DNA of 64,000 nt from an uncultured Planctomycetales bacterium (GTDB lineage Bacteria; Omnitrophota; Gorgyraeia; Zapsychrales; Fredricksoniimonadaceae), in NCBI GenBank assembly GCA_964583975.1, contig CAZOXU010000001.1, forward strand, positions 99,552 to 163,551. The letters run 5' to 3'. The notes beneath the pieces are model-generated. The model did not search any database, was not told where the DNA came from, and was given only the letters and a program-made list of their open reading frames with translations. The position numbers were made by a program, and so were the translations under genes. Shown in pieces: positions 10,899 to 61,836 of the stretch. How positions within the stretch are numbered: position 1 is the stretch's first letter; every line of letters begins with the position of its first letter.

Positions 10899-11909
10899 TC
10901 AAAGATTACGCGTATTTCCAATAAAACGATCTGCATCACTAAAGCCTAAATGCGATGCAGGCCTTACCATTTCAGCGCAACGGTTAAAAATTTTTGCTAG
11001 TAAAGAACGCCCCCATAAGCCTGGCATACCCCACGAAGAAGCTTCTTTACGAATAAGCCCGCTTAACTGTTGAAATTGCGAAACTTCCAACCATCCTTTG
11101 GCATTGGCTTGGTCCAAAAGGTCGATGGCATAATCAGGTAAACGATAAACCATGGATATTGTTGCAGCTTTAATGATCTTAGCCGTACGCACAGCTTGGT
11201 CTTTTTGTTTTAAGGCATTTAACAGACTATCAATCTTACGAAAATACAAAGCATCACCAAAAACCAATTGTCCACTACCAATATAGCCAGTATATTTCTT
11301 TCTCTTCCACCAAGACCGACGCAAATTCATCAATTGAAAACCTTTTTCATCCATAAAAGCATCAACATCACGAAATAAAGCTTGGCCCTTATATAACGGG
11401 GCAAATTCAACCTCTAGTTCCACCCCACAAAGCAAATCTAAATTTGCTTTTGCACCTTTTAAGATATCCAATTCACTGCCTTGGGTATCAATTTTGATAA
11501 AATCAACCTCTTTAATACCGGCTGTAGCTAGGGCCTCATCCAAAGATTTGACTTTTTCTCGGCTAAATTCAATCTCTTGTATGGTTTCATACCTTTGATC
11601 ATCGGGAAAATCCTTTAATAAAGCCATATTGGGTGGATAAATAGAAGATTTACCCTGATCACGAGAGATATAAAAACGTAAATCTTGGCTAGAATGATAA
11701 AGGGCGTAGGGTAAATAAGTTATATGAGCGTCAGATTTTAATTTAATGAATTCTCGTTCATCCGGTTCAAAGGCAATCACATGGCAATGATTCAACAATT
11801 GCTTCCAATATAAAGAAATGCCGCCCATCGCTCCGACATCAATGTAATGCAGCACAATCTTCGAGTCACAAAACTCATCAAAAAAGTTCTTAAAAGTGGA
11901 TTTTCCCAT
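10899..11909 (-). CDS. FkbM-family methyltransferase
   Basis: 'IDVGAMGG' and 'FIKIDTQGSELDIL' (FkbM domain). Confidence 0.7.
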   Translation of the reverse strand: MGKSTFKNFFDEFCDSKIVLHYIDVGAMGGISLYWKQLLNHCHVIAFEPDEREFIKLKSDAHITYLPYALYHSSQDLRFYISRDQGKSSIYPPNMALLKDFPDDQRYETIQEIEFSREKVKSLDEALATAGIKEVDFIKIDTQGSELDILKGAKANLDLLCGVELEVEFAPLYKGQALFRDVDAFMDEKGFQLMNLRRSWWKRKKYTGYIGSGQLVFGDALYFRKIDSLLNALKQKDQAVRTAKIIKAATISMVYRLPDYAIDLLDQANAKGWLEVSQFQQLSGLIRKEASSWGMPGLWGRSLLAKIFNRCAEMVRPASHLGFSDADRFIGNTRNL

Positions 11910-12652
11910 TATAAAACAATCTTTCCATTGGTCACCGTTAGATTGATAGAGTATGGAATATCAGTTTTCTCTAACGTAAAAGATCCCCCGGCAGCTATTA
12001 ATATGGGTAATGCACCTGCAATATCCCACAACATAATACCTTTTTCACAATACACTTCTGCTCTAGCACAGCTAACATAACTTAAAGATAAAGCCGCAGA
12101 GCCGAGCCAGCGTAATTTTTGATAGGCTTGAACATCTTTCTTAAATTGTTCGAAGAACGCGGTTGAATAGTTGGTATTCAATGCAAAACCTGTGAGCAAC
12201 ATCGCTCTATCTTTATGGGTAACATCACTAACCTTAATGGGAGCGTCATTAAGCCATGCGCCTTTGCCTACTAGGCCTGAGAATAATTCTTCGTTTCTAG
12301 GTGAATACACAGCTCCTAAAACCGGTTGATCTTCCTCCCATAAACCAATAGAAACACCATACATCGGAATTCCACGATAATAATTAATAGTGCCATCCAA
12401 AGGATCAACAATCCAACGAAGACCATCGGATTTACCTGAGATCAAACCTTCCTCTTCAGATAAAATAGGATAATTAGTCTGTTTTAATTTTTCTAAAATG
12501 AATGATTCAGACATTTTGTCGGCTTTTAATTTAAGATCATGATGCTGCCACTGGTCAATTTTCTTAAAATCTTTTGGAGCATTAGCTAAAAGAGTCCCTG
12601 CTTCTCGTACTGTATTTTTAACTAGTTCTAAAAGGCTTTGCAAATCTGCCAT
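11909..12652 (-). CDS. Inositol-monophosphatase family phosphatase, candidate 3'(2'),5'-bisphosphate nucleotidase (CysQ-like)
   Basis: IMPase motifs 'LSEEEG', 'WIVDPLDGTINY' and 'WDIAGALPILIAAGG'. Its context with ATP sulfurylase, APS kinase and a sulfotransferase suggests removal of the sulfotransferase by-product PAP. Confidence 0.75.
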   Translation of the reverse strand: MADLQSLLELVKNTVREAGTLLANAPKDFKKIDQWQHHDLKLKADKMSESFILEKLKQTNYPILSEEEGLISGKSDGLRWIVDPLDGTINYYRGIPMYGVSIGLWEEDQPVLGAVYSPRNEELFSGLVGKGAWLNDAPIKVSDVTHKDRAMLLTGFALNTNYSTAFFEQFKKDVQAYQKLRWLGSAALSLSYVSCARAEVYCEKGIMLWDIAGALPILIAAGGSFTLEKTDIPYSINLTVTNGKIVL

Positions 12653-13572
12653 TACCGTAATCCTAACTCTTGGAAACCCTGCAATAAGTTCTCAGCTGCT
12701 TCCAATTCCATTCGTTGACGACATTCATGGGTTAATGAGCCCACATGGGGTGTTAATAACACTTGAGGGCATGATAACAAAGGTCCCGAATATGGCTCAT
12801 CGACAAATGTATCAATCCATGCCCCGGCAATTTTATTTTGATTTAATGCCTGTAACAGGGCCTGCTCGTTAACCACTCCGCCCCGAGCCACATTTAGAAT
12901 AATAGCGCTGGGCTTAATTAAAGAAAATTCGTTGGCGCCTATGATTTCCTGTTGCCCACTTGCATGAATGGAAATAATATCAGCTAAAGGCAAGGCTTCT
13001 TTGATAGACACATATTTATAATCTGGATGGGAATTCTTAACATGTGGATCAACAACAAGGATTTTAGCTTTAAATGCTTTAAGAATCTCAGCAACTCTTA
13101 AGCCTATTCTGCCACAACCGATAATAACTACAGTTTTACCTTCTAATTGGTTTCCTAAAATCTTATTCCAAGCTCCTTTATGTAGCTGATCATTCATTTG
13201 AGGAATTTTCCTTAATAAAGACAACATGGCACCAATGGTCAATTCGGCGACAGCATTGGTTGGAGCATCAGGGGTAGAGAAAAATTTAATCCCCTGGGCT
13301 TGAGCTGCCTGAACATCCACATTAGAAATACCAGCCCCACAACGGGAAATGACTTTTAAGCGGGATTTTTCTAAAACTTCTTTGTCTAATATTTCCAATC
13401 CAGCAATCAAACCATCAAAATCTGGGAGTAAATTCAGCGATTCTTGGCGGGTAAGTTTTCTTTTGAAAGGATTTAAAATAACTTCAAACCCTGCTGCTTC
13501 TAAAGTCTTGATGGGCGTAGGATCACTTTCACCAAATGTGGAGGTAGAGATTAAAACTTTCCCTTTAGGCAT
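12652..13572 (-). CDS. D-isomer-specific 2-hydroxyacid dehydrogenase (PGDH/GyaR-like)
   Basis: 'VVIIGCGRIGLRVAEIL', 'ILNVARGGVVNEQAL' and 'HVGS'. Start set at the internal ATG 13570-13572; the track ORF extends to 13644. Confidence 0.8.
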   Translation of the reverse strand: MPKGKVLISTSTFGESDPTPIKTLEAAGFEVILNPFKRKLTRQESLNLLPDFDGLIAGLEILDKEVLEKSRLKVISRCGAGISNVDVQAAQAQGIKFFSTPDAPTNAVAELTIGAMLSLLRKIPQMNDQLHKGAWNKILGNQLEGKTVVIIGCGRIGLRVAEILKAFKAKILVVDPHVKNSHPDYKYVSIKEALPLADIISIHASGQQEIIGANEFSLIKPSAIILNVARGGVVNEQALLQALNQNKIAGAWIDTFVDEPYSGPLLSCPQVLLTPHVGSLTHECRQRMELEAAENLLQGFQELGLR

Positions 13573-13579
13573 ATATTGA

Positions 13580-15145
13580 TTATTTGTTCGAACCAGCGGC
13601 AGAAATACCTTCTGATTTTTGCGCGGGGGCAGAATCAGGAGCACCGGGTTGAATCATATATTCCGTCAGAAAGATTTCTCTCAATTCATTGAAAATACGG
13701 TCGCCTTCCTCATCGAAGATTTCAGCTCTTTTAATCTTAGGCCAATAGGATTTGGGCATTTTACAATACAAAACAAATGTCCTTCGCATTCCTTGAATTT
13801 CCTTTTTAGAAAGCTGAGGCATATCCAATGGAGCATCCACATTGATCGAACCAAAAACCGTATCTTCTTTAATGTATCCTCTTTTGACACATTCCTTCTG
13901 CAACGGAGTGCCGTGAAAAGGAGCAAAAACCGAACAGTTGGTTGAATCGCTCACTAAAAGTCGATTTAATTCAATGGTATCAAAGATTAGCTCTCTTGTT
14001 TCGTCTGGAAATCCAATCATATTATTAACCGTTAAAGGAACCTGATATTTCTCCAATACCTTCGAAGCATCGACGAATTTCTGATTATCAAATGTCTTCT
14101 TAAGGATTTTCCTTCTAAAATCGATATTTCCATGTTCTAAACCTAAAGAGGCTCTGTGCACGCCAGCTTCTTTCAGTCTTTTCATTCTATGATCAGTGAT
14201 CAATTCTGCACGTATTTGCATCCAGAAAGGAATTTTAAATTCACTGTACATATCGACAAATTCGTCAAACTCCTGGTCTGAACCGACTAACAAGTTATCG
14301 GAGGTGAAATAAACATACTCAGCACCCCATTGTTTGATCAAGGTCCTAAGCTCTTTGCGTAAAACATCATTACTTTTCTTTCTAAAAAATTGAAAAGTAT
14401 CATCTTTATACATTTTTAATGACGAAGGCGAATTACAAAAGGTACATAGGTATGGGCACCCACGGGTGGTTTCTACAGGAATGGTCCTATAGACCTTACC
14501 AGCCATAGGTCGATAAAAACGTTCGATAGGAAAAAGGCTAAAATCTGGAATAGGTAAGGTATTGATATCAACCGGTGGTCTTAATTTATTCTTTCTAACC
14601 TTGCCGCCGTTTTCTCCTCTAAAACACAGATTGTCGATATCATCCAAACTTTCACCCTTGGCCAAGCGCTTACAGGAATCTATTAAAGCCCCTTCTCCTT
14701 CACCTGAACAAATGAAGCTTATATTCTTGTTTCTAAATACGATTTCTGGAGCAAATGTAGGAAACACGCCGCCTGCAATGATAGGAACCTTGATTCCATC
14801 AAGAGCTCTAAGCATATCCAAAGAATTCGCATAGGTGCATTCTAAGATGGAGATAATAATGATATCTGGATTAAATGATCTAACCTTTTCTAGCAGATCA
14901 TCTTCCATTCGTGTTGTTTTGACTTTAATACCTCGTTCAGCCCAATCAAAGGGACGAACTTGTAAATTTTGCTTTTTGGCATCATCTGAACTTAAGGTCA
15001 TTGGATCAGCATAAAGTGTGGAATCAAAAAGATCGACTTCAAATTCATTTTGACGCAATAAAGCTGTAAAAAGTCCAATGCTAATAGGGGGTGGATTCAA
15101 TAAAGTTCCATTGGGGTAAAGAAGCAGTACTTTCGTTTTCTTCAT
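13580..15145 (-). CDS. B12-binding radical SAM enzyme (class B; likely a methyltransferase or other radical modification enzyme)
   Basis: N-terminal cobalamin-binding-like domain ('KVLLLYPNG...IIIISI'). Radical SAM 'TTRGCPYLCTFCNS' (CxxxCxxC). Start set at the ATG 15143-15145. Confidence 0.8.
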   Translation of the reverse strand: MKKTKVLLLYPNGTLLNPPPISIGLFTALLRQNEFEVDLFDSTLYADPMTLSSDDAKKQNLQVRPFDWAERGIKVKTTRMEDDLLEKVRSFNPDIIIISILECTYANSLDMLRALDGIKVPIIAGGVFPTFAPEIVFRNKNISFICSGEGEGALIDSCKRLAKGESLDDIDNLCFRGENGGKVRKNKLRPPVDINTLPIPDFSLFPIERFYRPMAGKVYRTIPVETTRGCPYLCTFCNSPSSLKMYKDDTFQFFRKKSNDVLRKELRTLIKQWGAEYVYFTSDNLLVGSDQEFDEFVDMYSEFKIPFWMQIRAELITDHRMKRLKEAGVHRASLGLEHGNIDFRRKILKKTFDNQKFVDASKVLEKYQVPLTVNNMIGFPDETRELIFDTIELNRLLVSDSTNCSVFAPFHGTPLQKECVKRGYIKEDTVFGSINVDAPLDMPQLSKKEIQGMRRTFVLYCKMPKSYWPKIKRAEIFDEEGDRIFNELREIFLTEYMIQPGAPDSAPAQKSEGISAAGSNK

Positions 15146-15219
15146 ATGGTCTCCTAGGATTTTGAATGGCAATATTATGAATTTAATTCTTTGAATAAAC
15201 AAGCCAAATTTTTGCCATA

Positions 15220-16014
15220 TTAGCCTTTATATTGGGCAAATAGCCTGTCGTTTTGCATCATTGCAACTGCATTTTTTAAGTCATCAATCGTATCTACACC
15301 TATGGTAGGCTGATCACAGCATACCGTACGCACCTTTACCCCCATCTCTAAAATACGCAACATATCGACCGATTCAGTCTTCTCTAAGCTAGTTCTTGGC
15401 CAGGCTGTAAATTGCAAAAGCGATTCTTTGCGATAAGCGTTAATTCCATACTGTTTATAGACCGGCATAGGGGCATTTTTATCGGATTTTTTGGCTGAAG
15501 GAATAGGTTCCCGCGAATAATAAAGGGCATTGTTAAATTTATCAACGACAACTTTGACAACATTAGGACTGGTGAAATCCGCCATATTGGTAATAGGCCC
15601 AATCATGTCTGTATACTGAACATTGCGATCATTTAATAATGGCTGTATCAATTGGTCTAAAGATTCTGGTTGGACAAATGGCATATCTCCTTGAACATTA
15701 ATGATGATATCAGCCTTTAATTTCTGTGCTGCTTCGGTCACTCGGTCTACACAACTTTCATGGGTTGCAGATGTCATAACCGCCTTACCCCCAAAACGTT
15801 GCACCTCATCAACAATTTCCTTATCACAGGTAGCTACCACCACATCATCCATTAAGGTTGATCGCATCACACGGCGTCTGACGTGTTCAATCATAGATAA
15901 ACCCATAATTTGGGCCAAAGGTTTGCCTGGAAAACGGCTGGACGCCATGCGGGCAGGTATGATAGCAACAACAGACATTAGGATTTCCATTTTTTGAGAT
16001 AAGCTTTTTTCCAT
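15220..16014 (-). CDS. CMP-ulosonic acid synthetase family cytidylyltransferase (KdsB/NeuA-like)
   Basis: 'AIIPARMASSRFPGKPLAQIMGLSMIEHV' matches the KdsB N-terminal signature (IPAR..S.R.PGKPL). Confidence 0.75.
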   Translation of the reverse strand: MEKSLSQKMEILMSVVAIIPARMASSRFPGKPLAQIMGLSMIEHVRRRVMRSTLMDDVVVATCDKEIVDEVQRFGGKAVMTSATHESCVDRVTEAAQKLKADIIINVQGDMPFVQPESLDQLIQPLLNDRNVQYTDMIGPITNMADFTSPNVVKVVVDKFNNALYYSREPIPSAKKSDKNAPMPVYKQYGINAYRKESLLQFTAWPRTSLEKTESVDMLRILEMGVKVRTVCCDQPTIGVDTIDDLKNAVAMMQNDRLFAQYKG

Positions 16015-17012
16015 TGCCTATCAGCCCCGTAAATATCATAAACCAGCTTCATGGTTTCATAAGCATCGTTTACATGGCCAGAAACAATAGGTTTATTTTT
16101 GGCAATAGCATCAGCAAAATCATCAATTTCATCTCGCCAAGAGTTATCGGTCAGATATTTAATGACCTCCTCGGCATCTGATCCTGTAGTTCCCTCATTC
16201 TTGCGACCAATAATTAGCTTCTCTTCCCCGTAACTTTTGGTGCTAGAGAGAATTCCTTGCAACTTCAAGTAGCCTTTGGTTAAAGCTATATCCAATGAAA
16301 AGCAATGTTGCCACTGGGTAGCACTCGAATGAAGAATAGCTATTCTTCCGCGATTATCTTTCATCAAGGCGTAAGCATTATCTTCTACATCATGTTTCCA
16401 AAATTGATTGGAAACAAAACTTTTAACTTCCGTGAATTCGCCAGAAAACAATCGCATTAAATCAACCATATGAATACCTTGATCTAGCAAAATCCCCCCA
16501 CCCGCATATTTTCTTTCAGAGCGCCAATTTCCATCAAAAGGAGTAATACTGCTTTTGCCGTATACACCACGCAAATTAATAATCGTCCCTAAATCGCCGG
16601 ATTGAATGATCTTTAAAGCAGCGCGCACCGAGTCATGGTAACGATGATTAAAACCATATTTTAACTTCAATTTGGGCAATGTCTTTTTGACCTTCACAAC
16701 ATCTTCAATATCTTTAACTGTTTTTCCAGGTGGTTTCTCACAAAACACATGCATCCCTGCTTTTAAACCGGCAATGGTCACTTCAGGAGCCAGATAGTTA
16801 GGAAGGCTGACAAAAATCACATCTAACTTTTCTTTTAACAATTGTTTATAATTCGGGAAATATTTCACACCATCCGAGAACTCCCCCGAGCTTGTAAATT
16901 TCTGATCACATACGGCAACTGTCACCATATCAGGACGCATATCAATATATTGCCGACGGCGTTTTCCAACCAGCCCATAACCTGCAATACCGACCTTAAG
17001 TTTGTTAGCCAT
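15978..17012 (-). CDS. Gfo/Idh/MocA family sugar oxidoreductase
   Basis: N-terminal Rossmann 'KVGIAGYGLVGKRR', 'EKP' motif, and C-terminal alpha/beta domain. Confidence 0.75.
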   Translation of the reverse strand: MANKLKVGIAGYGLVGKRRRQYIDMRPDMVTVAVCDQKFTSSGEFSDGVKYFPNYKQLLKEKLDVIFVSLPNYLAPEVTIAGLKAGMHVFCEKPPGKTVKDIEDVVKVKKTLPKLKLKYGFNHRYHDSVRAALKIIQSGDLGTIINLRGVYGKSSITPFDGNWRSERKYAGGGILLDQGIHMVDLMRLFSGEFTEVKSFVSNQFWKHDVEDNAYALMKDNRGRIAILHSSATQWQHCFSLDIALTKGYLKLQGILSSTKSYGEEKLIIGRKNEGTTGSDAEEVIKYLTDNSWRDEIDDFADAIAKNKPIVSGHVNDAYETMKLVYDIYGADRQWKKAYLKKWKS

Positions 17013-17860
17013 TATTTACCCCTCGCCCAAATTTGATTCCTAGTTTGATCGTTTTGACTCCACGTTAATTTAAAACCATAGGATTTTAACAAATCTGCAC
17101 ACAATTGGCTGTTCTTAGGATCTGGCGGCATTTCTAAAACCAGACTTCTTAACCTAGGGTCCTGTAATATCTTTTTAGCACCTGTTAAAACCTTCATTTC
17201 ATTACCATCGGTATCGATCTTTAAAGCATTGGGGACTACATTCAATTGTTCACAGGCCCTATCTAAAGTAATAACGCTGATTCCTTCTCGAAAAACAACT
17301 GAAAATCCTTCTTCGGTCTTAGTAATTTTTGTCTTACTTTCGGTATGAGCTGCAGCTCCCACAGCAGTATCTTGCATGTTTAGAAAACTTAAACCTTCAA
17401 AATCTCCAACAGCCACACTATTGATGGTCACCTTATTAGCCAAGCCGTTTAAAAACACATTATCTTTAAGGTGATTCAAATTCGAATACTCTGGCTCAAA
17501 ACTATATACAGAAACATTGGAATGTTTCTTTGCACAATAGACTGAGAAAATTCCAACGTTAGCACCAATATCAAAGAAAACATCGCCTTCTTTAACGAAT
17601 TCATCGATGTAATAACATATTTCTGACTCTTTTTTACCAAATAAATACCAACGAAAATGGGTGATCCAATTCACGCAAGAAAGTGTAAAACTAACGTTAT
17701 TAGCCCTCACTGTTCTTCGTGGTACTAAACATTTTGCTAAAAACCAGCCTAAGGCAATATGAGGATAGCGCCAATCACCATAGGAATGGATTAAAAATTG
17801 TCCAAGGGGTGTTCTTTTTAAATACTGCTTAAATTGGAGGGATGAATTATTTGAGCTCAT
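17012..17860 (-). CDS. FkbM-family methyltransferase
   Basis: 'FFDIGANVGIFSV' and 'LKIDTDGNEMKVLTGAKK'. Confidence 0.7.
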   Translation of the reverse strand: MSSNNSSLQFKQYLKRTPLGQFLIHSYGDWRYPHIALGWFLAKCLVPRRTVRANNVSFTLSCVNWITHFRWYLFGKKESEICYYIDEFVKEGDVFFDIGANVGIFSVYCAKKHSNVSVYSFEPEYSNLNHLKDNVFLNGLANKVTINSVAVGDFEGLSFLNMQDTAVGAAAHTESKTKITKTEEGFSVVFREGISVITLDRACEQLNVVPNALKIDTDGNEMKVLTGAKKILQDPRLRSLVLEMPPDPKNSQLCADLLKSYGFKLTWSQNDQTRNQIWARGK

Positions 17861-18618
17861 TTCTTAATTAACTTTAATCCCTCTCTACATTGATCTCCTA
17901 ATAAAAGAAAATCAACACTGTAAGCGATAAACCTAAAGCCTTTTTTAATTTTATCTTTAACCATACGAGTGTCTGTTGGGACACAATGAATACCTGCAGT
18001 TACACCCTTTTCCTTGGCTTTCAACATAATCCTCTTTAAAGCTGCGATTAATTTGGGGTTTTCAAACTCGCCGGCAATTCCCATCGATCCAGAAAGATCA
18101 TAAAGTCCAACTAGAAAGCCATCAATTCCTTGCACAGCAAAAATTTTATCGAGATTTTCCACAGCTTCGATATGTTCGATTTGAACAATAACGACGCTTT
18201 CGTTCTTGACCCATCGTTTATATTCATTAAATGTAGTGCCATACCCTTGAGCTCGTGAAAGGCCGATGCCTCTAGTTCCTTCTGGCGGATATTTAACAGC
18301 GTTAACAGCTTTTTGAGCTTCCTGAGCCGTGTTCACCATGGGAACGATGACCCCCGTGGCCCCCGCATCCATCACTCTTTTAATTAAGGTAGGATTATTA
18401 TCCCCGACTCGTACCAAAGCTGGGATACCACATAAATCAATGGTTTGAATAAGTTTCATGGCATGCTGGACGGTTAAAGCAGAGTGTTCCATATCCACCG
18501 CCAACCAATCAAAACCTGCTTTAGCCATAATTTCAGCAATGCAAGTATCGGTCATGGTAATCCATGATCCAATGGTCAGTTGATTTTTCTTAAGTTTTTG
18601 TTTGAGTGAAGCTTTCAT
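17857..18618 (-). CDS. HpcH/HpaI-family class II (pyruvate-dependent) aldolase
   Basis: 'LTIGSWITMTDTCIAEIMAKAGFDWLAVDMEHSA' is a typical HpaI/RhmA-type TIM-barrel start. It contains 'VRV' and 'IEHIEAVEN'. Confidence 0.75.
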   Translation of the reverse strand: MKASLKQKLKKNQLTIGSWITMTDTCIAEIMAKAGFDWLAVDMEHSALTVQHAMKLIQTIDLCGIPALVRVGDNNPTLIKRVMDAGATGVIVPMVNTAQEAQKAVNAVKYPPEGTRGIGLSRAQGYGTTFNEYKRWVKNESVVIVQIEHIEAVENLDKIFAVQGIDGFLVGLYDLSGSMGIAGEFENPKLIAALKRIMLKAKEKGVTAGIHCVPTDTRMVKDKIKKGFRFIAYSVDFLLLGDQCREGLKLIKK

Positions 18619-20513
18619 CGGATACTCACAGATTTATCTTCGATGGCTCCTGAAGGAAGATATCCCTGCCCTTTCTTAAGATTTGAATTTAATAAAAAGA
18701 CCTTTAAATTTTCTTCTGACGGTTGTGTAAAATATTCATTCAAGACTTGTTGGGCCATCTGTTCAAAACCAAGTTTATCTTGGGCATTCATCGTTTCGAT
18801 CCAACGAATCTGATTTTTCAATTCCAATGGTGCAACTACTGGCTTTAAAGCATATCCTTTTAGATGAAATGGATCATGATAAATCGCATTATCTGGAATA
18901 ACACGTATCACTGGGACCGCCATCATCATGGCTTCTAAAATAGCAATTGATCCACCAGTTGTTACAACAGCATGTGTCAGAGTCAAACTTTCCTGAATCG
19001 GCCGTGGCTGATCAAATTCCCAATGCGAAAGATTCAGCGTTTCAAGGAATCGTAAAATTCGATCCTTTGATAGTAACGGATGCATTCTAACAACCACTTT
19101 ATACTCGTTGCTATCTTGCAAAGCTGCTTTTAACTTTGTAAATAATTCAAAAGCCAAATCATAGCCAAATGTCAATGGTAGCAAAAGCATTTTCTTAGCA
19201 TCAGAAACCCCACTAGATCGGCGTATTGTCTTATAAACTGCCGCAAAACGCAAGTTGGATCCCATGACTATGCGCTCTTGAGGAAATCTTGCTTCGATAT
19301 GTAATTGTCTGTATTTAGGACCAGAACATATAATCTGATCTGGCAAAGGATGATCTTTCCACTCTCCATCTGCGAGATGATAGGTCAGTTGATTGCCGAA
19401 AAATGTTGTGTGTTGGAATCCTATGATTTTAGAATCTGGATAATATTGGCGGCACGCCAAGATAAAAGGATTCTCAGAAGCATTACATTCAAATGGATAG
19501 TAGAAAGCATCGACTTCGAATCCTCTTTCACTTAATCGTTTCAGGGTGGGTACACACAAATTAAGAATGGATAGGTGAACGTTGAATCCTGCCTTCTTTA
19601 ACACCTCATTAAAAATAGGACTCACATCCAGACCTGCGATTTGGACATTAGTGATAACACGATTAAATCCCTGATAACTGCTCTTAAGTACTCCCAAATA
19701 ATCTGAAAGTTTCAGATATTGTTCAGGCATCACTAATTTCAGATTTTGCGCTTTTAATTTCTGGATGATAACGCTTAAGGGTGATTTTAGATTAAAAAAT
19801 GTCGGAAGAAGCAAAACTTCATACTGTTTGTCCTCTAACCAGGAAGCAAGCTCTCCAAAATTTCGATCATTGTATTTCCCAGAAGCACTAAATGTATCTT
19901 CAGTTATCCAGCTTCGAAGAACCACTCTCTTAGATGCCTCGGTCTTACTTTTCAAGGACATTTCTAGATTATTTGACACAGCCAGTTTATTGCGAAGATT
20001 AATCCGAATAAAATTAAGAATTTGAGCAAGGTAATAAAACTGATGCTGGATTGGCTCAAGCAGTCTTTTGAATAGACTTGTTCGCCATTTGATATCTAGA
20101 TTTAAAGAATGACCATATTCCACAATACACTTAGACAAAACCATGCTATCGGTAATGAAAACAATGTCGCTTTGGGATTGCGCGATAATTTTCTTGGCAC
20201 AGATCAAATAAAGAATATTCTGGGTCAAAGGCGTAGCGGTCGTGCTTTTGGTAGAAACTTGATTGGCCCACCACTCCAACGAATGATTGGCCGTATTAAC
20301 TCGATGATACAACTTAAGTAGATCTTCTTTATACTCTTGGAAGGTTGTATCTAACATTTCCCCCAGAGTTCGAATTTCTCCTGGTATCTGGGATTTTAAT
20401 TGAACCAATCTTTCCCAATCATTAGATAAATACCAGCACGTAACGTCCTTACCCATAAATTTAGGGAGAAGTCCTGATAAATTAAGATGATCTATTACGG
20501 TAATTCTCTTCAT
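18615..20513 (-). CDS. Large conserved hypothetical protein, possibly a GT-B-like or capsule-type transferase
   Basis: 632 aa with no sharp motif. The C-terminal 'HAVVTTGGSIAILEAMMMAVPVI' resembles a GT-B C-domain. Confidence 0.4.
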   Translation of the reverse strand: MKRITVIDHLNLSGLLPKFMGKDVTCWYLSNDWERLVQLKSQIPGEIRTLGEMLDTTFQEYKEDLLKLYHRVNTANHSLEWWANQVSTKSTTATPLTQNILYLICAKKIIAQSQSDIVFITDSMVLSKCIVEYGHSLNLDIKWRTSLFKRLLEPIQHQFYYLAQILNFIRINLRNKLAVSNNLEMSLKSKTEASKRVVLRSWITEDTFSASGKYNDRNFGELASWLEDKQYEVLLLPTFFNLKSPLSVIIQKLKAQNLKLVMPEQYLKLSDYLGVLKSSYQGFNRVITNVQIAGLDVSPIFNEVLKKAGFNVHLSILNLCVPTLKRLSERGFEVDAFYYPFECNASENPFILACRQYYPDSKIIGFQHTTFFGNQLTYHLADGEWKDHPLPDQIICSGPKYRQLHIEARFPQERIVMGSNLRFAAVYKTIRRSSGVSDAKKMLLLPLTFGYDLAFELFTKLKAALQDSNEYKVVVRMHPLLSKDRILRFLETLNLSHWEFDQPRPIQESLTLTHAVVTTGGSIAILEAMMMAVPVIRVIPDNAIYHDPFHLKGYALKPVVAPLELKNQIRWIETMNAQDKLGFEQMAQQVLNEYFTQPSEENLKVFLLNSNLKKGQGYLPSGAIEDKSVSIR

Positions 20514-20517
20514 AGAT

Positions 20518-22326
20518 TTAAGTTACCTTGGCCATCTTACGAAACTGCTGATTATTCTCTAAAAGTTGCTGATAGGTCCCTTGCTCAACAATCTTTCCTT
20601 TTTCTAAAAGGTAAATCACATCACATTCCTTGACCGTACTTAGTCGATGCGCAATGATCACAATAGTCTTCTTATGGGCTAAACGATTAATGGCCTCTAA
20701 AATAACGTCTTCCGTAATTCCATCCAAGGCGCTTGTGGCTTCATCAAATACAATGACCGAAGGATTTCGGTATAAGGCCCGTGCAATACCAATACGCTGT
20801 CTTTGTCCTCCACTTAAACGCACACCTCGCTCACCTACTTCCGTCGCATAACCGTTAGGCAATTCCTTTTCAATAAAATCATGGATATTAGCCATCTTAG
20901 CCGCTGCCTGTACAGCCTGCGCATCGATCTGATCATCAGGAATACCAAAGGCAATATTGCGCGTAACAGTATCATCACAAATATAAATATGTTGGGGAAC
21001 ATAACCTATATTTCGTTGCCACATCGGCAAATTATCTTCCGATATTCTTACGCCATCGACACGAATTTCACCGGCCTGAGGCGATAAAAGACCTAATAAA
21101 ATATCAATCACTGTTGTCTTTCCAGCCCCTGTACCGCCTACAAACCCAACAGTTGTGTTGTGCTTAATAACTAAATTAAAATTCTCAATCACATTGGTTT
21201 GAGCTTTAGGATATTTGAAATTGATACCGCGAAATTCAAACTCCTGATTAAAAGGCATTGTCTGATCAGGCCCTGTGGATTTTTCTTTCCTATAATCTTT
21301 GTAGTTAATCATATCCTCATACAAAGAATCTAAGGCAGATTGGCCAAAACGTATCGAACTAATCGATTGAAAAATTTGCTGTAAAGCCGGGATTAATCGA
21401 TAGGCAGCTAAGGTATATAAACCAATCATGGGCACGGCTTCTTGATAGTTTTTACTGATAACCACACAATAAACCGTGACCAATAAAAGCCCTCCAAAGG
21501 TCAACGATTCAAAAATGTAGCGTGGGGTCGTTGTAATTAAGGCTTGCGCCACATAACCATCGACTGTTTTAATCGCTGGCTGATAAAATCGGTCAATAAA
21601 GATATTCTCTTTACCTAAAAGCTTAATATCTTTAACGCCACCAAAAGCCTCATTAATGACTCTAAACATGGTTGCTGTATGCGCCCTATTGGTAGCCCCT
21701 ATGGAAGCTAGCTTATTTCTAAAACAAAAATAAATAAGCCCATATCCTCCACCCATCACAGTCAATACAATGCCCGTTACTACAGGATTGACAACTACTA
21801 ATAAAATAATGACCGTTGCAACAAACACAGTCTTGGCAAACATTTCAAGCGAAGGAATCAGGACATAACCAACCACTCTTCCTACCTCAGCCATTAAATG
21901 ATGGGTCAATCCCGCGCTGTTGCGGTTAAGAAAGAATGCATACGGTTCATAAAGGTATTGGGTCAATAATCGAGAAGCTATTGTTCCCTGCTGCGTCCAT
22001 GTCATACGTGTTAACACAGCCGTAGTCAGAGTGCGAAAAATATTGCTGGATATAAAAATAGCAAACATGGTGATGGCCAAGGCCACAATAAAGTCCGTGG
22101 CGTTTTGAAAACTAAAGAATTGATAACACCAGCGTAATTTATCATTAGTTTCAATAATGCTTGGAGTAGCCACCACTTTCAAAAAAGGAAAAATAGAGGC
22201 TACTCCCAACATATCTAAAAAGGCCACAAAGACCATCGCCACCGCCAGCCAGTAGAGCTTACGACGATCTTTTGGCATGATGATTCGATGTAACTTATGA
22301 TAAACATCAAAGCGGTGGATTTTCAA
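20518..22326 (-). CDS. ABC transporter, fused permease/ATPase type I exporter (MsbA/PglK-like)
   Basis: Six-TM N-domain, Walker A 'GGTGAGKTT', signature 'LSGGQRQRIGIARAL', Walker B 'IVFDEATSALD'. Confidence 0.85.
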   Translation of the reverse strand: MKIHRFDVYHKLHRIIMPKDRRKLYWLAVAMVFVAFLDMLGVASIFPFLKVVATPSIIETNDKLRWCYQFFSFQNATDFIVALAITMFAIFISSNIFRTLTTAVLTRMTWTQQGTIASRLLTQYLYEPYAFFLNRNSAGLTHHLMAEVGRVVGYVLIPSLEMFAKTVFVATVIILLVVVNPVVTGIVLTVMGGGYGLIYFCFRNKLASIGATNRAHTATMFRVINEAFGGVKDIKLLGKENIFIDRFYQPAIKTVDGYVAQALITTTPRYIFESLTFGGLLLVTVYCVVISKNYQEAVPMIGLYTLAAYRLIPALQQIFQSISSIRFGQSALDSLYEDMINYKDYRKEKSTGPDQTMPFNQEFEFRGINFKYPKAQTNVIENFNLVIKHNTTVGFVGGTGAGKTTVIDILLGLLSPQAGEIRVDGVRISEDNLPMWQRNIGYVPQHIYICDDTVTRNIAFGIPDDQIDAQAVQAAAKMANIHDFIEKELPNGYATEVGERGVRLSGGQRQRIGIARALYRNPSVIVFDEATSALDGITEDVILEAINRLAHKKTIVIIAHRLSTVKECDVIYLLEKGKIVEQGTYQQLLENNQQFRKMAKVT

Positions 22327-23212: not shown

Positions 23213-24325
23213 TTATATTAATTTAAAACTTTTCAACTGATACTCTCTGGAAAATCTTTTCTTAATACTGCCATTCGCAGGACCATAAGGAAGAATTAAA
23301 TGGACGGAAGAATCAAGTAGCGCCGGATTGATGACCGGTTTGCCTCTAAATCGTCTCGACTCATTCTTACTCTTCATATTTTCATCTACAAAGAATTCAA
23401 TTCGATTACCTAACACACTCTCTACAAACGCTGCAGTTGTTGTTGTTCCTAAAACACATGTCTTTGGCTGCGAAATTGTAAGCAATTGTCGTTTCACTCG
23501 GTCTAAATATTTCATGGTCCTATAAATGCTTGTATCTTTTTTGATCTGACTGGTCTTATTTGAAGATGTCGCTTGGGCTATGGCAACGATATCTCTAGGG
23601 AAATGCTCATTGGGCAATAAAACCATATCAAAACCAGCCTTATGAAGAACGTTCCTTAAAATAGACGGCGTAAAATAATAATACTGATCAGCCAAAAGGA
23701 TCGAACAAGGATTGTTAGTGACATCCGGCAACTGGATAAAGAGTTTGCCTTCTTTTTTTAACAATCGTCGAACATTCACCAATAGTCCTTGGATGTCCTT
23801 GATATAGATCATCGACAGGGACATACAAATCAAGTCAAACTCACCTTTAATCTTTGAAAGATCGGCTAAATGAAAAACAAAATTCTTTTTCGAAGGAAAA
23901 CATTTTTTTAAATGTCGATTAACATCAAAGCCATGAAATTCAGCTTTAGGAAAACGGCCATTTAACTCTAGTAACAATTCCCCCTTAAAGCATCCAATGT
24001 CTAATACCTTGGTCTCCTTGCTATTACGTAAAAACCCCTTTAGTAGTTCTCCTTGTAAAAAAAATCGTGTTACACGTCGATTAGGTTTCAATAAAAATGT
24101 CTGATTAGTGATCGGCGCCTTAGCATAGTCTAAACTTTCATAAATCTGAGCCTGCTTTTTCTCATCCGCCTCACTCATGATATTAATGAGCAACTGACAA
24201 TCCTTACACCGACCTATCATTCCACTTTTTCTATAATCTACAAAACCTAGATGTCTAAACAAAGTATACGGAAGTTTAATCAATTCTATTTTTGATCCCT
24301 GACAAAACGCGCACCTTTTACTCAA
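23213..24325 (-). CDS. SAM methyltransferase with N-terminal Zn-ribbon (TylCIII/NDP-hexose C-methyltransferase-like architecture)
   Basis: 'CAFCQGS...CKDCQLL' Cys pairs, followed by 'VLDIGCFKGELLLEL'. Confidence 0.6.
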   Translation of the reverse strand: MSKRCAFCQGSKIELIKLPYTLFRHLGFVDYRKSGMIGRCKDCQLLINIMSEADEKKQAQIYESLDYAKAPITNQTFLLKPNRRVTRFFLQGELLKGFLRNSKETKVLDIGCFKGELLLELNGRFPKAEFHGFDVNRHLKKCFPSKKNFVFHLADLSKIKGEFDLICMSLSMIYIKDIQGLLVNVRRLLKKEGKLFIQLPDVTNNPCSILLADQYYYFTPSILRNVLHKAGFDMVLLPNEHFPRDIVAIAQATSSNKTSQIKKDTSIYRTMKYLDRVKRQLLTISQPKTCVLGTTTTAAFVESVLGNRIEFFVDENMKSKNESRRFRGKPVINPALLDSSVHLILPYGPANGSIKKRFSREYQLKSFKLI

Positions 24326-25898
24326 GTTGACTTAAAACCTCCCCTATAGGTAATAAAGCTGCATGTTTTCTTAAGAAACTTCGTCCGATTCTGCTATTGA
24401 CCGTAACTTTTTCATCAGCATAAGCCTTTCCTACTTCAGCCATGGCTGCCTTGAACCTCTCTTGCAAGATTTCATCTTCATCCACATATTTTAAAGTGCC
24501 CTTGCACTTATCTAACATTTCTTCCACCACTGCTTTTATTTCTTCAGCTGAATTTCTTATAACTTCTAATCCCATGGTGTCATAGGTGTACTGTTCGCAA
24601 GCAGCTCCCACAGGTGGACTCACCAATTCTTCAAAGTTTAAATATCTTTTTTCTAGCGAATGCCAACAGAGCCCGGGTAAGAATAAATCCTTCGCTGATA
24701 AACAATAGATAGCATGTGCAGGTAAAAGATTTGTTACAACTGCCGGAACGCCAAAAGCAACTGATACCATAAAATAACCAGAAGAAGTACCAACCACAAA
24801 ACGACATTGTGACGACAAAAAGACATCCATCCAATCACTTTTGAGATTGCTGTGAGCATAATCAATCACATGCGACATTTTCTTTAACGGTTTCATCGAA
24901 GGATCACCCATACGAATCACCCATCCTCCCGCAGACACAATCGATTCAATAGCAGGAATATAGGTATCGATATCCGCATTACGGTAATCTTCTACAAGAG
25001 ATTTTTCATGCCATCCTGCTTCTCGGACATGAAAACATACAAACCATGCAGTCTCAGGAACTCCCAATAATTTTAAATTCTGCCAGCCACGATTAAAGTC
25101 TTCTTGGGTTAACGTCAATAAAGGAGGTCGGTTTTCTTTATCCCATTGCTCCTGCACAATCCCAATGGCCGTATGACTAACAATGACTTCATCGCGCAAT
25201 TTCATAGCGTAATTAAAAGGATAGTCCAAAGCTTTTTCCAAAGGTTCCAAGGTCTCAATAGTTTGCGGATCAGTAATAACGGTGATGTATTTACTCCAAT
25301 AATTGAGGTAGCATCGATTATTGATCTTGGTATTAGGAGGCAAAAGCAAAATCATTTTCTTTAAAGGACGCCAACCAAGGAGTGCTGCCATCACATAGGT
25401 GCTAAGCGTTTCGTAAAGACCAATAGAACCACTTACAAGGATTCGTGGCACAAATTCAACGTTTAAGTTATCTAATTGATGAGATTTCAAAAGATAAAAT
25501 CTTGTTCTTTCAAAATCTTTAAAAACGACTCTATGCTTCTGGTATTCTCCGCTAAAAAAATATAATACCGCAAGACCTACATTAGCAGCTGCCCAAGAAG
25601 ACATATTTTCTAAATCTGGTGTTCTAGCAACTGTCTTTCTTAATATCTCTTCTGCTTTTCTTTGCGCCCTAACCAAGGATTCGCCCTCAACCCTCTGGGT
25701 ACGCAGTTTTCGGTAATCTTTTAATAACTTCACAGAAAGAAAATCGTATGCCTGAGGCCAATTAAGATTCCACTGTACAGCCAAACCTGCAAAAAGATTT
25801 AAAAGGAGCTTGTTTTTCCCATTAGAAATCTTTTGACTGAAAGCTCTCCAACCTCCCTTTTTGATCTGAAAAAATTGACGTTTAAGAAAAACAAACAT
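24318..25898 (-). CDS. Conserved protein of unknown function, paralog of 32520..33776 (TIGR04372-like putative glycosyltransferase)
   Basis: Shares the blocks 'VIDYAHSNLKSDWMDVFLSSQCRFVVGTSSG' and 'GLEVIRNSAEEIKAVVEEM' with 32520..33776. Confidence 0.45.
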   Translation of the reverse strand: MFVFLKRQFFQIKKGGWRAFSQKISNGKNKLLLNLFAGLAVQWNLNWPQAYDFLSVKLLKDYRKLRTQRVEGESLVRAQRKAEEILRKTVARTPDLENMSSWAAANVGLAVLYFFSGEYQKHRVVFKDFERTRFYLLKSHQLDNLNVEFVPRILVSGSIGLYETLSTYVMAALLGWRPLKKMILLLPPNTKINNRCYLNYWSKYITVITDPQTIETLEPLEKALDYPFNYAMKLRDEVIVSHTAIGIVQEQWDKENRPPLLTLTQEDFNRGWQNLKLLGVPETAWFVCFHVREAGWHEKSLVEDYRNADIDTYIPAIESIVSAGGWVIRMGDPSMKPLKKMSHVIDYAHSNLKSDWMDVFLSSQCRFVVGTSSGYFMVSVAFGVPAVVTNLLPAHAIYCLSAKDLFLPGLCWHSLEKRYLNFEELVSPPVGAACEQYTYDTMGLEVIRNSAEEIKAVVEEMLDKCKGTLKYVDEDEILQERFKAAMAEVGKAYADEKVTVNSRIGRSFLRKHAALLPIGEVLSQLE

Positions 25899-61644: not shown

Positions 61645-61836
61645 TTAGAATAAAGGATACACGTCATCCCCCGAGGCACTAAGAGATGTTGAACTATTGT
61701 CCTTATTAGTTTTGGCCAAATCGCGCATCAAAAATGGCATAAAAATGATACCTTGGATCATATATTTAAGACGTTCATTAAAAGTTTTCTTACGAGCGGC
61801 CATTTTCATAACATTACTCAATAGATTAGATTTCAT
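61645..61836 (-). CDS. Small hypothetical protein (63 aa)
   Basis: The ATG at 61834-61836 overlaps the upstream stop as ATGA. The stop is 3 nt before the next gene's ATG. No motif. Confidence 0.3.
   Translation of the reverse strand: MKSNLLSNVMKMAARKKTFNERLKYMIQGIIFMPFLMRDLAKTNKDNSSTSLSASGDDVYPLF

Follow-up and report, generated by a model that had tools for sequence, protein, structure and literature searches.

The stretch of DNA analysed here (64 kb, in the following called the window) carries on its minus strand a tight operon of nine genes (10899-20513), in which neighbouring genes overlap by 1-4 nt or are separated by gaps of less than 20 nt. These nine genes, and two further ones discussed below, are:

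18615-20513, minus strand: TIGR04326-like protein of 632 aa with a GT-B fold, candidate transferase for the CMP-activated acid (weak TIGR04326 match, AF2 model)
17857-18618, minus strand: class II HpcH/HpaI-family 2-keto-acid aldolase, proposed ulosonic-acid synthase (Pfam)
17012-17860, minus strand: FkbM-family methyltransferase, tailoring (Pfam, TIGR01444)
15978-17012, minus strand: Gfo/Idh/MocA sugar oxidoreductase (Pfam)
15220-15978, minus strand: KdsB-like CTP:ulosonate cytidylyltransferase, CT (ORF to 16014, likely start M13; CTP_transf_3, NF009905, TIGR00466)
13580-15145, minus strand: B12-binding radical SAM enzyme, probable C-methylase of the sugar acid (ORF to 15202; Pfam B12-binding and Radical_SAM)
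12652-13572, minus strand: D-2-hydroxyacid dehydrogenase of a distinct non-PGDH subfamily (ORF to 13644; Pfam)
11909-12652, minus strand: inositol-monophosphatase-family sugar phosphatase (Pfam, 170 bits)
10899-11909, minus strand: second FkbM-family methyltransferase, tailoring (Pfam, TIGR01444)
20518-22326, minus strand: PglK/MsbA-type fused ABC exporter, possibly associated (Pfam, NCBIfam)
50622-51257, minus strand: GmhA-like SIS isomerase, membership uncertain (Pfam SIS_2)

Pfam and NCBIfam searches found the six genes named in an earlier note on this DNA where that note had put them, all on the minus strand. The note was right in describing a compact gene block, but the extent it gave was too small. 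The gene at 18615-20513 shares 4 nt with the start of the aldolase gene, and the dehydrogenase is followed downstream by the phosphatase and then by the second FkbM gene, both with 1-nt overlaps. The likely true starts of the CT, the B12-radical SAM enzyme and the dehydrogenase are 15978, 15145 and 13572, respectively. This grouping is not a matter of chance, since members of the aldolase clade are accompanied by these genes again and again, in dozens of phylogenetically distant genomes.

The aldolase scored 138 bits against the HpcH_HpaI Pfam model (cut-off 25), and its PDB matches were HpaI, YfaU and GarL (E-values between 1e-38 and 1e-44). Its scores against the NCBIfam equivalog models of HpaI (198 vs. 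a cut-off of 369), GarL (173 vs. 393) and RhmA (164 vs. 441) were too low for any of these assignments. Sequence identity was 50-65% to members of its own clade, which extends over many phyla, and about 36-38% to annotated hpaI and catabolic homologues. Across this clade H45, R70, E148 and D174 are invariant, and we take these to be the catalytic and metal residues of HpaI. Using crude in-house ORF calling and single-linkage clustering, we compared 83 related loci and found a CT on the strand of the aldolase in 68 of them; the two genes are a median of 41 bp apart, and in 41 loci the gap is at most 100 bp. When only loci with at least 7 kb of flanking sequence on both sides were considered, a CT was present in 45 of 46. 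The low equivalog scores, the separate clade and this synteny place the enzyme outside the catabolic HpaI/GarL/RhmA group, as its proposed biosynthetic role had implied.

The CT passed both KdsB models (NF009905, 302.5 vs. 255; TIGR00466, 189 vs. 155) and scored only 40 bits against the PseF model (cut-off 206). Its best PDB match was KpsU (1gq9, about 45% identity), and its homologues are automatically annotated as KdsB. All characterised members of the CTP_transf_3 family known to us activate 2-ulosonic acids. Compared with three gammaproteobacterial KdsBs, the CT clade has kept the catalytic residues but the sugar-binding domain is changed (H172Q; LEQLR to [VI]DMLR). CT orthologues adjoin the aldolase in archaea, Dehalococcoidia and Saccharibacteria, and Firmicutes loci have a NeuA-like type instead; to our knowledge, none of these four lineages makes LPS. 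The neighbourhood of the orthologues, the replacement by a NeuA-like enzyme and the altered motifs make this CT look unlike a housekeeping kdsB, the case that the earlier note had named as damaging to its proposal. In profile searches of the window no KdsA, KpsC, KpsS, KpsM or KpsT was detected.

The dehydrogenase scored 219 bits against the PGDH model (cut-off 454) and its closest PDB entries are short PGDHs. It has retained the Arg/Glu/His triad and carries A-G-x-E in place of the PGDH motif VRSATK. This gene is present in 63 of the 83 loci. It co-varies with a phosphate-removing enzyme: the two occur together in 34 loci, both are lacking in four, and there is no locus in which the phosphate remover occurs alone. 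The phosphatase reached no NCBIfam equivalog, and its homologues (38-49% identity) directly follow the dehydrogenase in nine loci. In other loci a HAD phosphatase stands in its place, or an SDR together with an AroB-like phospholyase, and one alternative phosphate remover passes TIGR04425 (AroB-related sugar-phosphate phospholyase). The substrate of AroB itself is a 3-deoxy-2-ulosonate 7-phosphate.

Homologues of the first FkbM gene (17012-17860) lie between aldolase and CT in L016, L028 and L073 and nearby in others, and those of the second (10899-11909) were found near the aldolase in seven loci. A Gfo/Idh/MocA gene (up to 68% identity) is present in 25 of the 83 loci, usually beside a GmhA-like SIS isomerase; the nearest structures to the window protein are inositol 2-dehydrogenase and glucose-fructose oxidoreductase. 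The SIS gene of the window scored 123 bits against the gmhA model (cut-off 209) and is 41-54% identical to the SIS genes beside the Gfo/Idh/MocA gene in 20 loci; it is located 32 kb from the operon and its membership of the cassette is uncertain. The B12-radical SAM enzyme, which reached no NCBIfam equivalog, has homologues (32-45%) inside the cassette in L026, L028, L033, L034, L045 and L049 and also in L086, and it is probably a C-methylase of the sugar acid.

For the 632-aa protein the Pfam search gave no match and the TIGR04326 match was weak. Its TIGR04326-like family (about 610 aa, members 40-47% identical) includes several members that share contigs with aldolase and CT homologues, and hits of the family profile came from 22 related aldolase loci (19 of them at E < 1e-10), in many cases right after the phosphatase gene. 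The AF2 model (pLDDT 88, pTM 0.90) retrieved generic GT-B proteins (UDP-GlcNAc 2-epimerase/NeuC, GT1) in a Foldseek search of the PDB at TM values of 0.3-0.6. H478-P479 is invariant in this family, and an HP dipeptide is also found in sialyl- and Kdo-transferases (PMC9587256). This dipeptide is weak evidence, and the protein is a candidate for the transferase that uses the CMP-activated acid. The ABC exporter is possibly tied to the operon, and in L013, L016, L020, L050 and L071 the gene immediately upstream of the aldolase encodes a homologous ABC protein.

Across phyla the aldolase shows a conserved and mutually exclusive pairing with a dedicated CT. This partner is either KdsB-like or belongs to NeuA-like clade II, never both, and in about a quarter of the loci it is a NeuA/PseF-like enzyme. 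NeuA-like CTs of clade I were found in surroundings of the legionaminic type, and these loci have the KdsB-like gene as well. The hosts of the cassette include Dehalococcoidia, Saccharibacteria, Peptococcaceae, Acetivibrio, an actinobacterium, Hadarchaeia, Methanoperedens, Methanomicrobiales and Woesearchaeota, and it was also found in a Spirochaetia locus (L046). A polysaccharide plasmid of Acuticoccus carries a self-contained operon of five genes (aldolase-CT-dehydrogenase-HAD-SDR); no NeuB is annotated on this plasmid in the PLSDB gene table, but the table is incomplete and its silence on NeuB counts for little. In one variant (L087) aldolase and CT are kept without dehydrogenase and phosphatase, and an aminotransferase and an acetyltransferase lie between them. 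We found no paper on this cassette in the literature. The operon is one version of a widespread, uncharacterised bacterial and archaeal cassette, the product of which is most likely a keto sugar acid resembling Kdo or sialic acid.

The NeuB gene of the window (55511-56548) is real (291 bits), and a NeuB was found within 10 kb of the aldolase in 20 of the 83 loci; L019 and L041 hold the cassette without NeuB within this distance. That the proposed aldolase pathway is separate from the NeuB module, as the earlier note had suggested, is supported by the legionaminic-type loci, which hold a further CT, and by L085, in which NeuB and aldolase each have their own CT. The CT of the window is the orthologue of the aldolase-side enzyme of L085 (63% identity) and is unlike the NeuB-side one. 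Profile searches of the 58 window ORFs of at least 150 aa identified no CT besides the KdsB-like one, and it is possible that this enzyme also serves the NeuB product.

Taken together, these data suggest that the product of the operon is a nucleotide-activated ulosonic (2-keto sugar) acid and that no PEP-dependent KdsA/NeuB synthase takes part in its formation, and we put the probability of this reading at roughly 0.6. The route as a whole is our inference, from the direction in which the aldolase works and the donor and the acceptor it uses to the sequence of the tailoring steps and the final transfer. The class II HpcH-type aldolase would form the C-C bond between the enolate of a 2-keto acid and an aldose or aldose phosphate. 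The donor would be pyruvate, or hydroxypyruvate provided by the conserved D-2-hydroxyacid dehydrogenase. The IMPase-family enzyme (elsewhere the HAD phosphatase or the AroB-like phospholyase with its SDR) would take off the phosphate, and the Gfo/Idh/MocA oxidoreductase, the two FkbM methyltransferases and the B12-radical SAM enzyme would tailor the sugar acid. The KdsB-like enzyme would then join it to CMP, the adjacent HP-dipeptide GT-B protein would move it onto a glycan, with the nearby ABC exporter perhaps taking charge of the product. An activated keto sugar acid made by an aldolase, the core of the original proposal, is supported by the aldolase clade and its CT linkage, but the 3-deoxy structure it had assumed, with pyruvate as donor, is not established, since the conserved dehydrogenase is easiest to explain with hydroxypyruvate. 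With pyruvate this enzyme has no necessary role; the obvious expectation is that it would reduce the 2-keto group of the aldol product, and the CT would then lose the very group on which it depends.

Such a reduction is part of a different scenario, which we consider unlikely. The aldolase, dehydrogenase, phosphatase and methyltransferases would build a 3-deoxy-aldonic acid (pyruvate plus glyceraldehyde-3-phosphate, followed by 2-keto reduction, dephosphorylation and O-methylation) as N-acyl side chain of a NeuB-derived nonulosonic acid, and the CT would activate that nonulosonic acid. The flagellin glycan of Treponema denticola is a 2-methoxy-4,5,6-trihydroxy-hexanoyl nonulosonic acid (PMC13439194), and its side chain is the exact output expected from this enzyme set, the members of which would obtain sequential roles matching the gene order. 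The 20 loci with a nearby NeuB and the presence of the cassette in Spirochaetia fit as well. However, the conserved genes of the cassette include no acid-amine ligase, ATP-grasp, AMP-ligase or carrier protein, and the aldolase comes with a CT of its own also in loci whose legionaminic-type module is already supplied with one. Moreover, no NeuB lies within 10 kb of the cassette in L019 or L041, none is annotated on the Acuticoccus plasmid, and L087 dispenses with just those enzymes that would reduce and dephosphorylate the side chain.

Two other explanations concern the CT. Because it passed the curated KdsB models, it could make ordinary CMP-Kdo, either as a housekeeping enzyme or as a KpsU-like capsule type, from Kdo provided by a canonical KdsA elsewhere in the genome, and the aldolase would be an unrelated neighbour. 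The KpsU match and the automatic annotations point in the same direction, but this explanation is quite improbable in view of the close aldolase-CT adjacency across phyla, the orthologues in archaea, Dehalococcoidia and Saccharibacteria, the NeuA-like clade standing in at other loci, the clade-wide consistency of the residue changes in the Kdo-binding domain, and a window without KdsA and the Kps proteins searched for. We give very little credence to the idea that the NeuB/PseI-like module, 40 kb away, relies on the KdsB-like enzyme as its missing CMP-nonulosonate synthetase, although no second CTP_transf_3 gene was found among the 58 ORFs and the module shows no PseF, LegF or NeuA gene. Its scores (40 bits for PseF, 302 for KdsB), the different CT on the NeuB side of L085 and the separate NeuA-like CT of legionaminic-type loci argue against it, and with only 7.5 kb of the window left upstream of NeuB, a PseF gene may sit just outside.

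When the proposed ulosonic-acid route is compared with known systems, the canonical Kdo pathway (the SIS isomerase KdsD, the PEP-dependent Kdo8P synthase KdsA, the HAD phosphatase KdsC and the CMP-Kdo synthetase KdsB) shares with the cassette a KdsB-family CT, a phosphatase and, as far as the long form is concerned, a SIS isomerase, and its logic is matched step by step (isomerisation, condensation with a C3 keto acid, dephosphorylation, CMP activation). The condensing enzyme, however, is a metal-dependent HpcH/HpaI aldolase instead of KdsA, a PEP synthase of the DAHP_synth_1 family that is absent from the window and from the annotated related loci. As to the SIS protein, it resembles GmhA and not KdsD, the phosphatase is of the IMPase or HAD-IA and not of the KdsC type, the sugar-domain motifs of the CT are altered, and the cassette adds the 2-hydroxyacid dehydrogenase and oxidoreductases and is found in monoderm bacteria and archaea. 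With the nonulosonic acid pathways (NeuB/PseI/LegI plus NeuA/PseF/LegF) it would share the type of end product, an alpha-keto sugar acid that is activated with CMP and destined for surface glycans, and it often lies beside legionaminic-type modules. In contrast to these pathways it has no NeuB-family synthase, its NeuA-like enzymes form their own clade, and no set of dehydratase, aminotransferase, acetyltransferase or hydrolysing epimerase is conserved with it. In Shewanella, Kdo8N is formed from KdsA-derived Kdo by oxidation (KdnB) and transamination (KdnA). The cassette resembles this system in the proposed tailoring of an ulosonic acid by oxidation, and L087 adds an aminotransferase and an acetyltransferase, but the families differ (Gfo/Idh/MocA, class I/II aminotransferase).

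The catabolic class II aldolases (HpaI/HpcH, GarL, RhmA/YfaU) have the Pfam family, the fold, the catalytic Arg and His and the metal ligands in common with the cassette enzyme, whereas its context is glycan biosynthesis and not the catabolism of aromatics or sugar acids, and the proposed direction is synthetic. HpcH enzymes that accept hydroxypyruvate have been characterised as biocatalysts, and we know of no glycan role for such hydroxyketoacid aldolases. PDB entry 6r62, which we take to be an HpcH-family member using hydroxypyruvate as donor, matched the aldolase with 115 bits, and HpaI is closer (155 bits). If hydroxypyruvate were the donor in the cassette, its conserved 2-hydroxyacid dehydrogenase would gain a role as donor supplier.

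All 58 open reading frames of at least 150 amino acids in the window are located on the minus strand and the G+C content is even across it (37-42%). A Pfam scan of all 58 indicated one very large glycan-biosynthesis region, which involves glycosyltransferases, many methyltransferases, dTDP-/NDP-sugar enzymes, a sulfation set, a heptose-like set and a NeuB module at 55511. Nine consecutive genes, which are separated by gaps of less than 20 nt or overlap by 1-4 nt, occupy the stretch between 20513 and 10899. An earlier note on this DNA had grouped an aldolase, a cytidylyltransferase and several accessory genes in a block at 12652-18618. All genes it named were recovered by Pfam/NCBIfam and they are indeed grouped, but the extent was too short, since the operon covers 10899-20513. 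Its nine genes and the exporter preceding them are:

20518-22326, minus strand: PglK/MsbA-type ABC exporter, directly upstream of the nine-gene operon
18615-20513, minus strand: TIGR04326-like protein
17857-18618, minus strand: HpcH/HpaI aldolase
17012-17860, minus strand: FkbM methyltransferase
15978-17012, minus strand: Gfo/Idh/MocA oxidoreductase (GFO), 344 aa
15220-15978, minus strand: KdsB-like cytidylyltransferase
13580-15145, minus strand: B12-radical SAM enzyme
12652-13572, minus strand: D-2-hydroxyacid dehydrogenase
11909-12652, minus strand: IMPase-family phosphatase
10899-11909, minus strand: second FkbM methyltransferase

The aldolase matches Pfam PF03328 with 138 bits (cut-off 25), covers positions 3-215 of the 221 profile positions and aligns to HpaI 4b5s over residues 2-241 and 2-240. 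Among 24 members of its clade H45, R70, E148 and D174 are invariant, and we take these residues to be the counterparts of the catalytic Arg70 and His45 and of the metal ligands Glu149 and Asp175 of HpaI. The proposed biosynthetic role implied that the enzyme is separate from the catabolic HpaI/RhmA aldolases, and this was borne out. Its scores remained below the NCBIfam equivalog cut-offs for HpaI (198 vs 369), GarL (173 vs 393, 171 vs 407) and RhmA (164 vs 441), plasmid-borne genes annotated as catabolic hpaI share about 36-38% identity with it, and no catabolic neighbours (hpa, gar, rhm genes) surround the aldolase either in the window or in any of 83 related loci. The actual neighbours there are cytidylyltransferases, methyltransferases, glycosyltransferases and exporters. 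A protein search yielded more than 7,000 relatives, the best 120 of which are 58-66% identical (the query's own sequence aside). When two clade peptides were searched against species-representative genomes, at least 577 matching stretches were obtained. The best 80 of these originate from bacteria (Omnitrophota, Dehalococcoidia, Planctomycetota including Brocadiaceae, Nitrospirota, Desulfobacterota, Acidobacteriota, Elusimicrobia, Saccharibacteria, Firmicutes, one actinobacterium and cultured Nitrosomonas) and from archaea (Hadarchaeia, Methanoperedens, Methanomicrobiales, Woesearchaeota). These sequence comparisons indicate a distinct and widespread aldolase clade.

The 83 related loci were collected by tblastn with the window proteins, neighbouring reading frames were clustered and recurrent clusters annotated; simple in-house scripts were used for ORF calling and clustering. 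Here, we found that a CTP_transf_3 cytidylyltransferase accompanies the aldolase in 68 of the 83 loci, in every such case on the same strand, with a median gap of 41 bp. For loci with at least 7 kb of flank on both sides the corresponding count was 45 of 46. The D-2-hydroxyacid dehydrogenase is present in 63 of the 83 loci and is directly followed by a phosphate-removing enzyme, which can be a HAD phosphatase (29 loci), an IMPase-family enzyme of the window type (9 loci) or, in about 11 loci, a 'sugar phosphate phospholyase' related to AroB (TIGR04425, 440 bits vs 400) together with a FabG-like SDR. In the related loci a phosphate remover never occurred without the dehydrogenase. In L012, L017, L019, L053, L059, L069, L070, L073 and L074 the SDR and this cyclizing phospholyase were seen in the place of the phosphatase, and an omega-deoxy acid, or even a carbocyclic one, could be the product of such loci. 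A sugar oxidoreductase is usual near the aldolase, which is either a GalE-like extended SDR (32 loci) or a GFO (25 loci, at most 68% identical), the latter often together with a GmhA-like SIS isomerase. Methyltransferases, cassette-internal B12-radical SAM enzymes, a PF04199 'cyclase' hydrolase and an upstream ABC exporter are optional members, as are TIGR04326-like proteins, which lie downstream of the core genes in 22 loci. In one variant (locus L087) dehydrogenase and phosphatase are missing, and an aminotransferase and an acetyltransferase are inserted between aldolase and cytidylyltransferase.

The minimal form of the cassette consists of five genes. It occurs in two cultured species of Nitrosomonas, N. 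europaea and N. eutropha, and in Acuticoccus sp. I52.16.1, also cultured, where a 97-kb polysaccharide plasmid carries it. On this plasmid the operon encodes the aldolase, an acylneuraminate-cytidylyltransferase-family protein, a 'phosphoglycerate dehydrogenase', a HAD hydrolase and an NAD(P) oxidoreductase, and it is flanked by unrelated genes. The PLSDB gene table of the plasmid, which is incomplete, lists an MptE-like protein and a member of the sialidase family but no NeuB. In Nitrosomonas the same five genes adjoin a GT2 gene and an O-antigen-ligase-like gene. In the N. eutropha locus (L066) a gene that by its sequence is 6-phosphogluconolactonase-like (13261-13947) overlaps the cassette end and a glucokinase-like gene is nearby; this may be either a housekeeping neighbour or a hint to a sugar-phosphate precursor. 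Two further protein families of about 465 aa (L019 8592-9989, L041 8635-10029) and about 400 aa (L002 8697-10004, L039 6389-7567; with an 'AAHP' motif) were observed directly beside the aldolase or its cytidylyltransferase. Neither matched a Pfam or NCBIfam model, and both are candidate transferases. For the neighbour families c25 and c26 a Pfam search at E <= 1 gave nothing decisive, and BLAST detected no similarity between c25 and the MptE-like protein that the plasmid of Acuticoccus encodes.

The cytidylyltransferase of the window passes the curated KdsB models (NF009905, 302.5 vs 255; NF003952, 281 vs 193; TIGR00466, 189 vs 155) and is about 45% identical to KpsU. With the PseF equivalog it scored 40 bits (cut-off 206), over the N-terminal half only. 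The CTP- and Mg-binding residues R10, R15, K19, QGD and D225 (KpsU numbering) occur without exception (100%) among 53 members of the clade. In the C-terminal part we observed H172Q (94%), E201D (100%), Q202M (100%) and Y178F (92%), with KpsU and the KdsBs of V. cholerae and H. influenzae as the only comparators, and the LEQLR motif of these three canonical enzymes reads [VI]DMLR in the clade. The C-terminal domain of KdsB binds Kdo (PMC3149649). Because the C-terminal changes are uniform while all nucleotide and metal residues are kept, the comparison with these three enzymes is suggestive of an altered sugar specificity.

Other observations speak against an ordinary KdsB. The orthologues of the enzyme adjoin the aldolase in archaea, Dehalococcoidia and Saccharibacteria, which to our knowledge are not makers of LPS or Kdo, and Pfam detected no DAHP_synth_1 (KdsA) gene in the window, in L001-L003 or in L085-L087. 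In a neighbour-joining tree without bootstrap, the NeuA/PseF-like enzymes found close to the aldolase form two clades. One of them, in legionaminic-type contexts (NeuB, NeuC-like, PtmE-like and amidotransferase neighbours), is confined to loci that also carry a KdsB-like gene, whereas the other, which adjoins the aldolase, is confined to loci without one. Therefore, each aldolase has exactly one dedicated cytidylyltransferase of either type, and the swap of KdsB-like and NeuA-like enzymes would fit a non-orthologous replacement. L085 is the closest relative with long context that was found. There, a separate and divergent cytidylyltransferase lies on the NeuB side, and the aldolase-side enzyme is 63% identical to that of the window. 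This arrangement speaks for the proposal that the aldolase route is distinct from the NeuB module. Taken together, the clade exclusion, the separate enzymes of L085 and the five-gene operon of Acuticoccus support the assignment of the cytidylyltransferase to the aldolase pathway. Two KdsB-like paralogues occur in tandem in L001-L003, a further point against an ordinary KdsB; in L001 (10786-13258) and L002 (10768-13242) the pair is split by an SDR gene and both members carry ES[VI]DMLR. Such pairs imply that two related acids are activated with CMP, or that activation takes two steps.

The nearest PDB relatives of the dehydrogenase are short phosphoglycerate dehydrogenases (PGDHs), and it scored 219 against the PGDH equivalog TIGR01327 (cut-off 454). 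Our reference was human PGDH, in which R54 of the VRSATK motif is the cationic phosphate-binding residue. A-G-x-E takes the place of this motif in 95% of 57 clade members, with the catalytic R/E/H triad intact. The idea of a true PGDH that feeds phosphohydroxypyruvate was rejected, since the phosphate-binding motif is absent. 2-Hydroxyacid dehydrogenases interconvert only 2-hydroxy and 2-keto acids. Because of this restriction, and because the enzyme and the phosphatase co-vary and the L087 variant does without the former, we favour a supply role, for instance of hydroxypyruvate as aldol donor. HpcH aldolases accept hydroxypyruvate, and with this donor the product would therefore be 3-hydroxylated and not 3-deoxy. 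Between hydroxypyruvate and pyruvate we consider the odds roughly even. The IMPase-family phosphatase was also considered as CysQ for the sulfation genes; this was rejected, as its orthologues hold the fixed place after the dehydrogenase in loci without detected sulfation-gene homologues.

The B12-radical SAM enzyme has class B architecture (N-terminal B12-binding PF02310, 46 bits; PF04055, 78 bits) and reached no NCBIfam equivalog (best HpnJ, 90 vs 578); it is a putative methylase. The structural model of the TIGR04326-like protein (pLDDT 88) showed a GT-B fold with an N-terminal extension. Foldseek against the PDB gave generic matches and Pfam at E <= 1 nothing decisive for its family, in which a His-Pro dipeptide is invariant. 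In sialyltransferases and in the Kdo transferase WbbB, the histidine of the HP motif serves the CMP phosphate (PMC9587256), and the analogy is a hint, but only a hint, to a CMP-sugar transferase.

The strongest competing explanation is that aldolase, dehydrogenase, phosphatase and methyltransferase make a 3-deoxyaldonic acid that is attached as N-acyl group to a nonulosonic acid. It accounts neatly for the dehydrogenase, and the flagellin sugar of T. denticola carries a group of this sort (2-methoxy-4,5,6-trihydroxyhexanoyl; PMC13439194). However, it leaves the dedicated cytidylyltransferase unaccounted for and the cassette does not contain a conserved ligase. Ordinary CMP-Kdo synthesis would be in line with the KdsB family scores, and a function for the NeuB module of the window with the lack of any other cytidylyltransferase there, but synteny and clade data speak against both and we disfavour them. 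A phosphonate pathway with Fom1/Fom3-like CMP chemistry was rejected, as there is no PEP mutase in the window, and so was a group 2 capsule Kdo linker, as KpsC, KpsS, KpsM and KpsT are absent from it.

The reading with the best support is a route that runs parallel to Kdo synthesis, and its functions are all inferred from sequences and gene context. Its starting aldose or aldose phosphate would be supplied, by the SIS isomerase where one exists, and condensed by the aldolase with a C3 2-keto acid. A phosphate would then be removed. The acid may be tailored by GFO or SDR redox reactions, O-methylation and C-methylation by the B12-radical SAM enzyme before it would be CMP-activated and transferred by the GT-B protein. 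The natural substrate of AroB is a 3-deoxy-2-ulosonate 7-phosphate. Since this compound resembles the aldol product of pyruvate and a tetrose phosphate, an AroB-like substitute for the phosphatase fits such a pathway.

Other glycan genes of the window showed unusual features. A single 737-aa protein (27270-29483) combines a pyruvate-kinase barrel, an unusual fusion partner, with PUA_2 and ATP-sulfurylase domains, and a TPR-sulfotransferase (25900-27252) and an APS kinase (40852-41379) are located near it; judging from these genes the glycan is probably sulfated. An HldE-like bifunctional protein (48094-49626) carries the nucleotidyltransferase N-terminally and the PfkB kinase C-terminally, which is the reverse of HldE, and both halves score below the HldE cut-offs. 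At 41382-44219 a split transketolase, with N- and C-terminal halves as separate genes, lies with an APH-family kinase within the glycan cluster and suggests a two-carbon transfer onto a sugar. The NeuB module (51351-57588) includes a PIG-L deacetylase, a formyltransferase, an ATP-grasp enzyme and a PseG-like protein; no CMP-nonulosonate synthetase for it was found in the window. Pfam at E <= 1 gave no family for the reading frames 57585-59630, 59645-61642, 61833-62813, 24318-25898, 29476-31053 and 32520-33776 (326-681 aa). For three of them (59645, 61833 and 29476) L085 encodes counterparts with 43-64% identity, and two of these keep their order there, beside a carbamoyltransferase. The carbamoyltransferase gene of the window (62961-64000) runs past its end; the listed start is an internal Met and the frame is open to 64000.

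We found no description of this gene combination in the literature. A 2026 preprint on environmental bacteria reports unassigned CMP-linked alpha-keto acids, including C10 backbones, and does not mention aldolases. The cassette products could be behind some of these mass-spectrometric signals, and the cassettes would then offer candidate genes for them. Genome surveys for such sugars look for KdsA- or NeuB-type genes. If our reading is true, they miss a whole class of acidic surface sugars, also in archaea, Dehalococcoidia, Saccharibacteria and Firmicutes, which are not thought to make Kdo-like compounds. Glycoengineering would also gain new families of cytidylyltransferases and transferases, and there would be a natural case of a pyruvate aldolase working in the synthetic direction.

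The deacetylase-formyltransferase pair of the window (51351-52962) matches that of the legionaminic-type cluster of Kuenenia stuttgartiensis (2026 preprint), a hint to an anammox-like or related source. By size and family the GFO (344 aa) is similar to the 'oxidoreductase' PtmF (326 aa), and the FabG-like SDR of the related loci (253 aa) to PtmA (254 aa). GFO and the SIS isomerase were also considered as possible homologues of the PtmF/PtmA enzymes of legionaminic acid clusters. At slightly less than even odds (about 0.45), class II pyruvate-type aldolases make up a third family of ulosonic-acid synthases, next to KdsA and NeuB but independent of PEP. Each of them would be accompanied by a cytidylyltransferase and transferase families of its own, and they would occur in many phyla of bacteria, in the candidate phyla radiation and in archaea. 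Their sugars would be chemically undescribed, with 3-hydroxylated (hydroxypyruvate-derived), C-methylated and omega-deoxy or carbocyclic acids (AroB-like phospholyase instead of phosphatase) as candidates. Every described route to a CMP-activated keto sugar acid that we know of (Kdo, Kdn, sialic, pseudaminic, legionaminic) starts with a PEP-dependent KdsA- or NeuB-type synthase. We rate the cassette as CMP-ulosonic acid biosynthesis, and thus as a pathway of known kind, with another type of synthase and with cytidylyltransferase and transferase families of its own.
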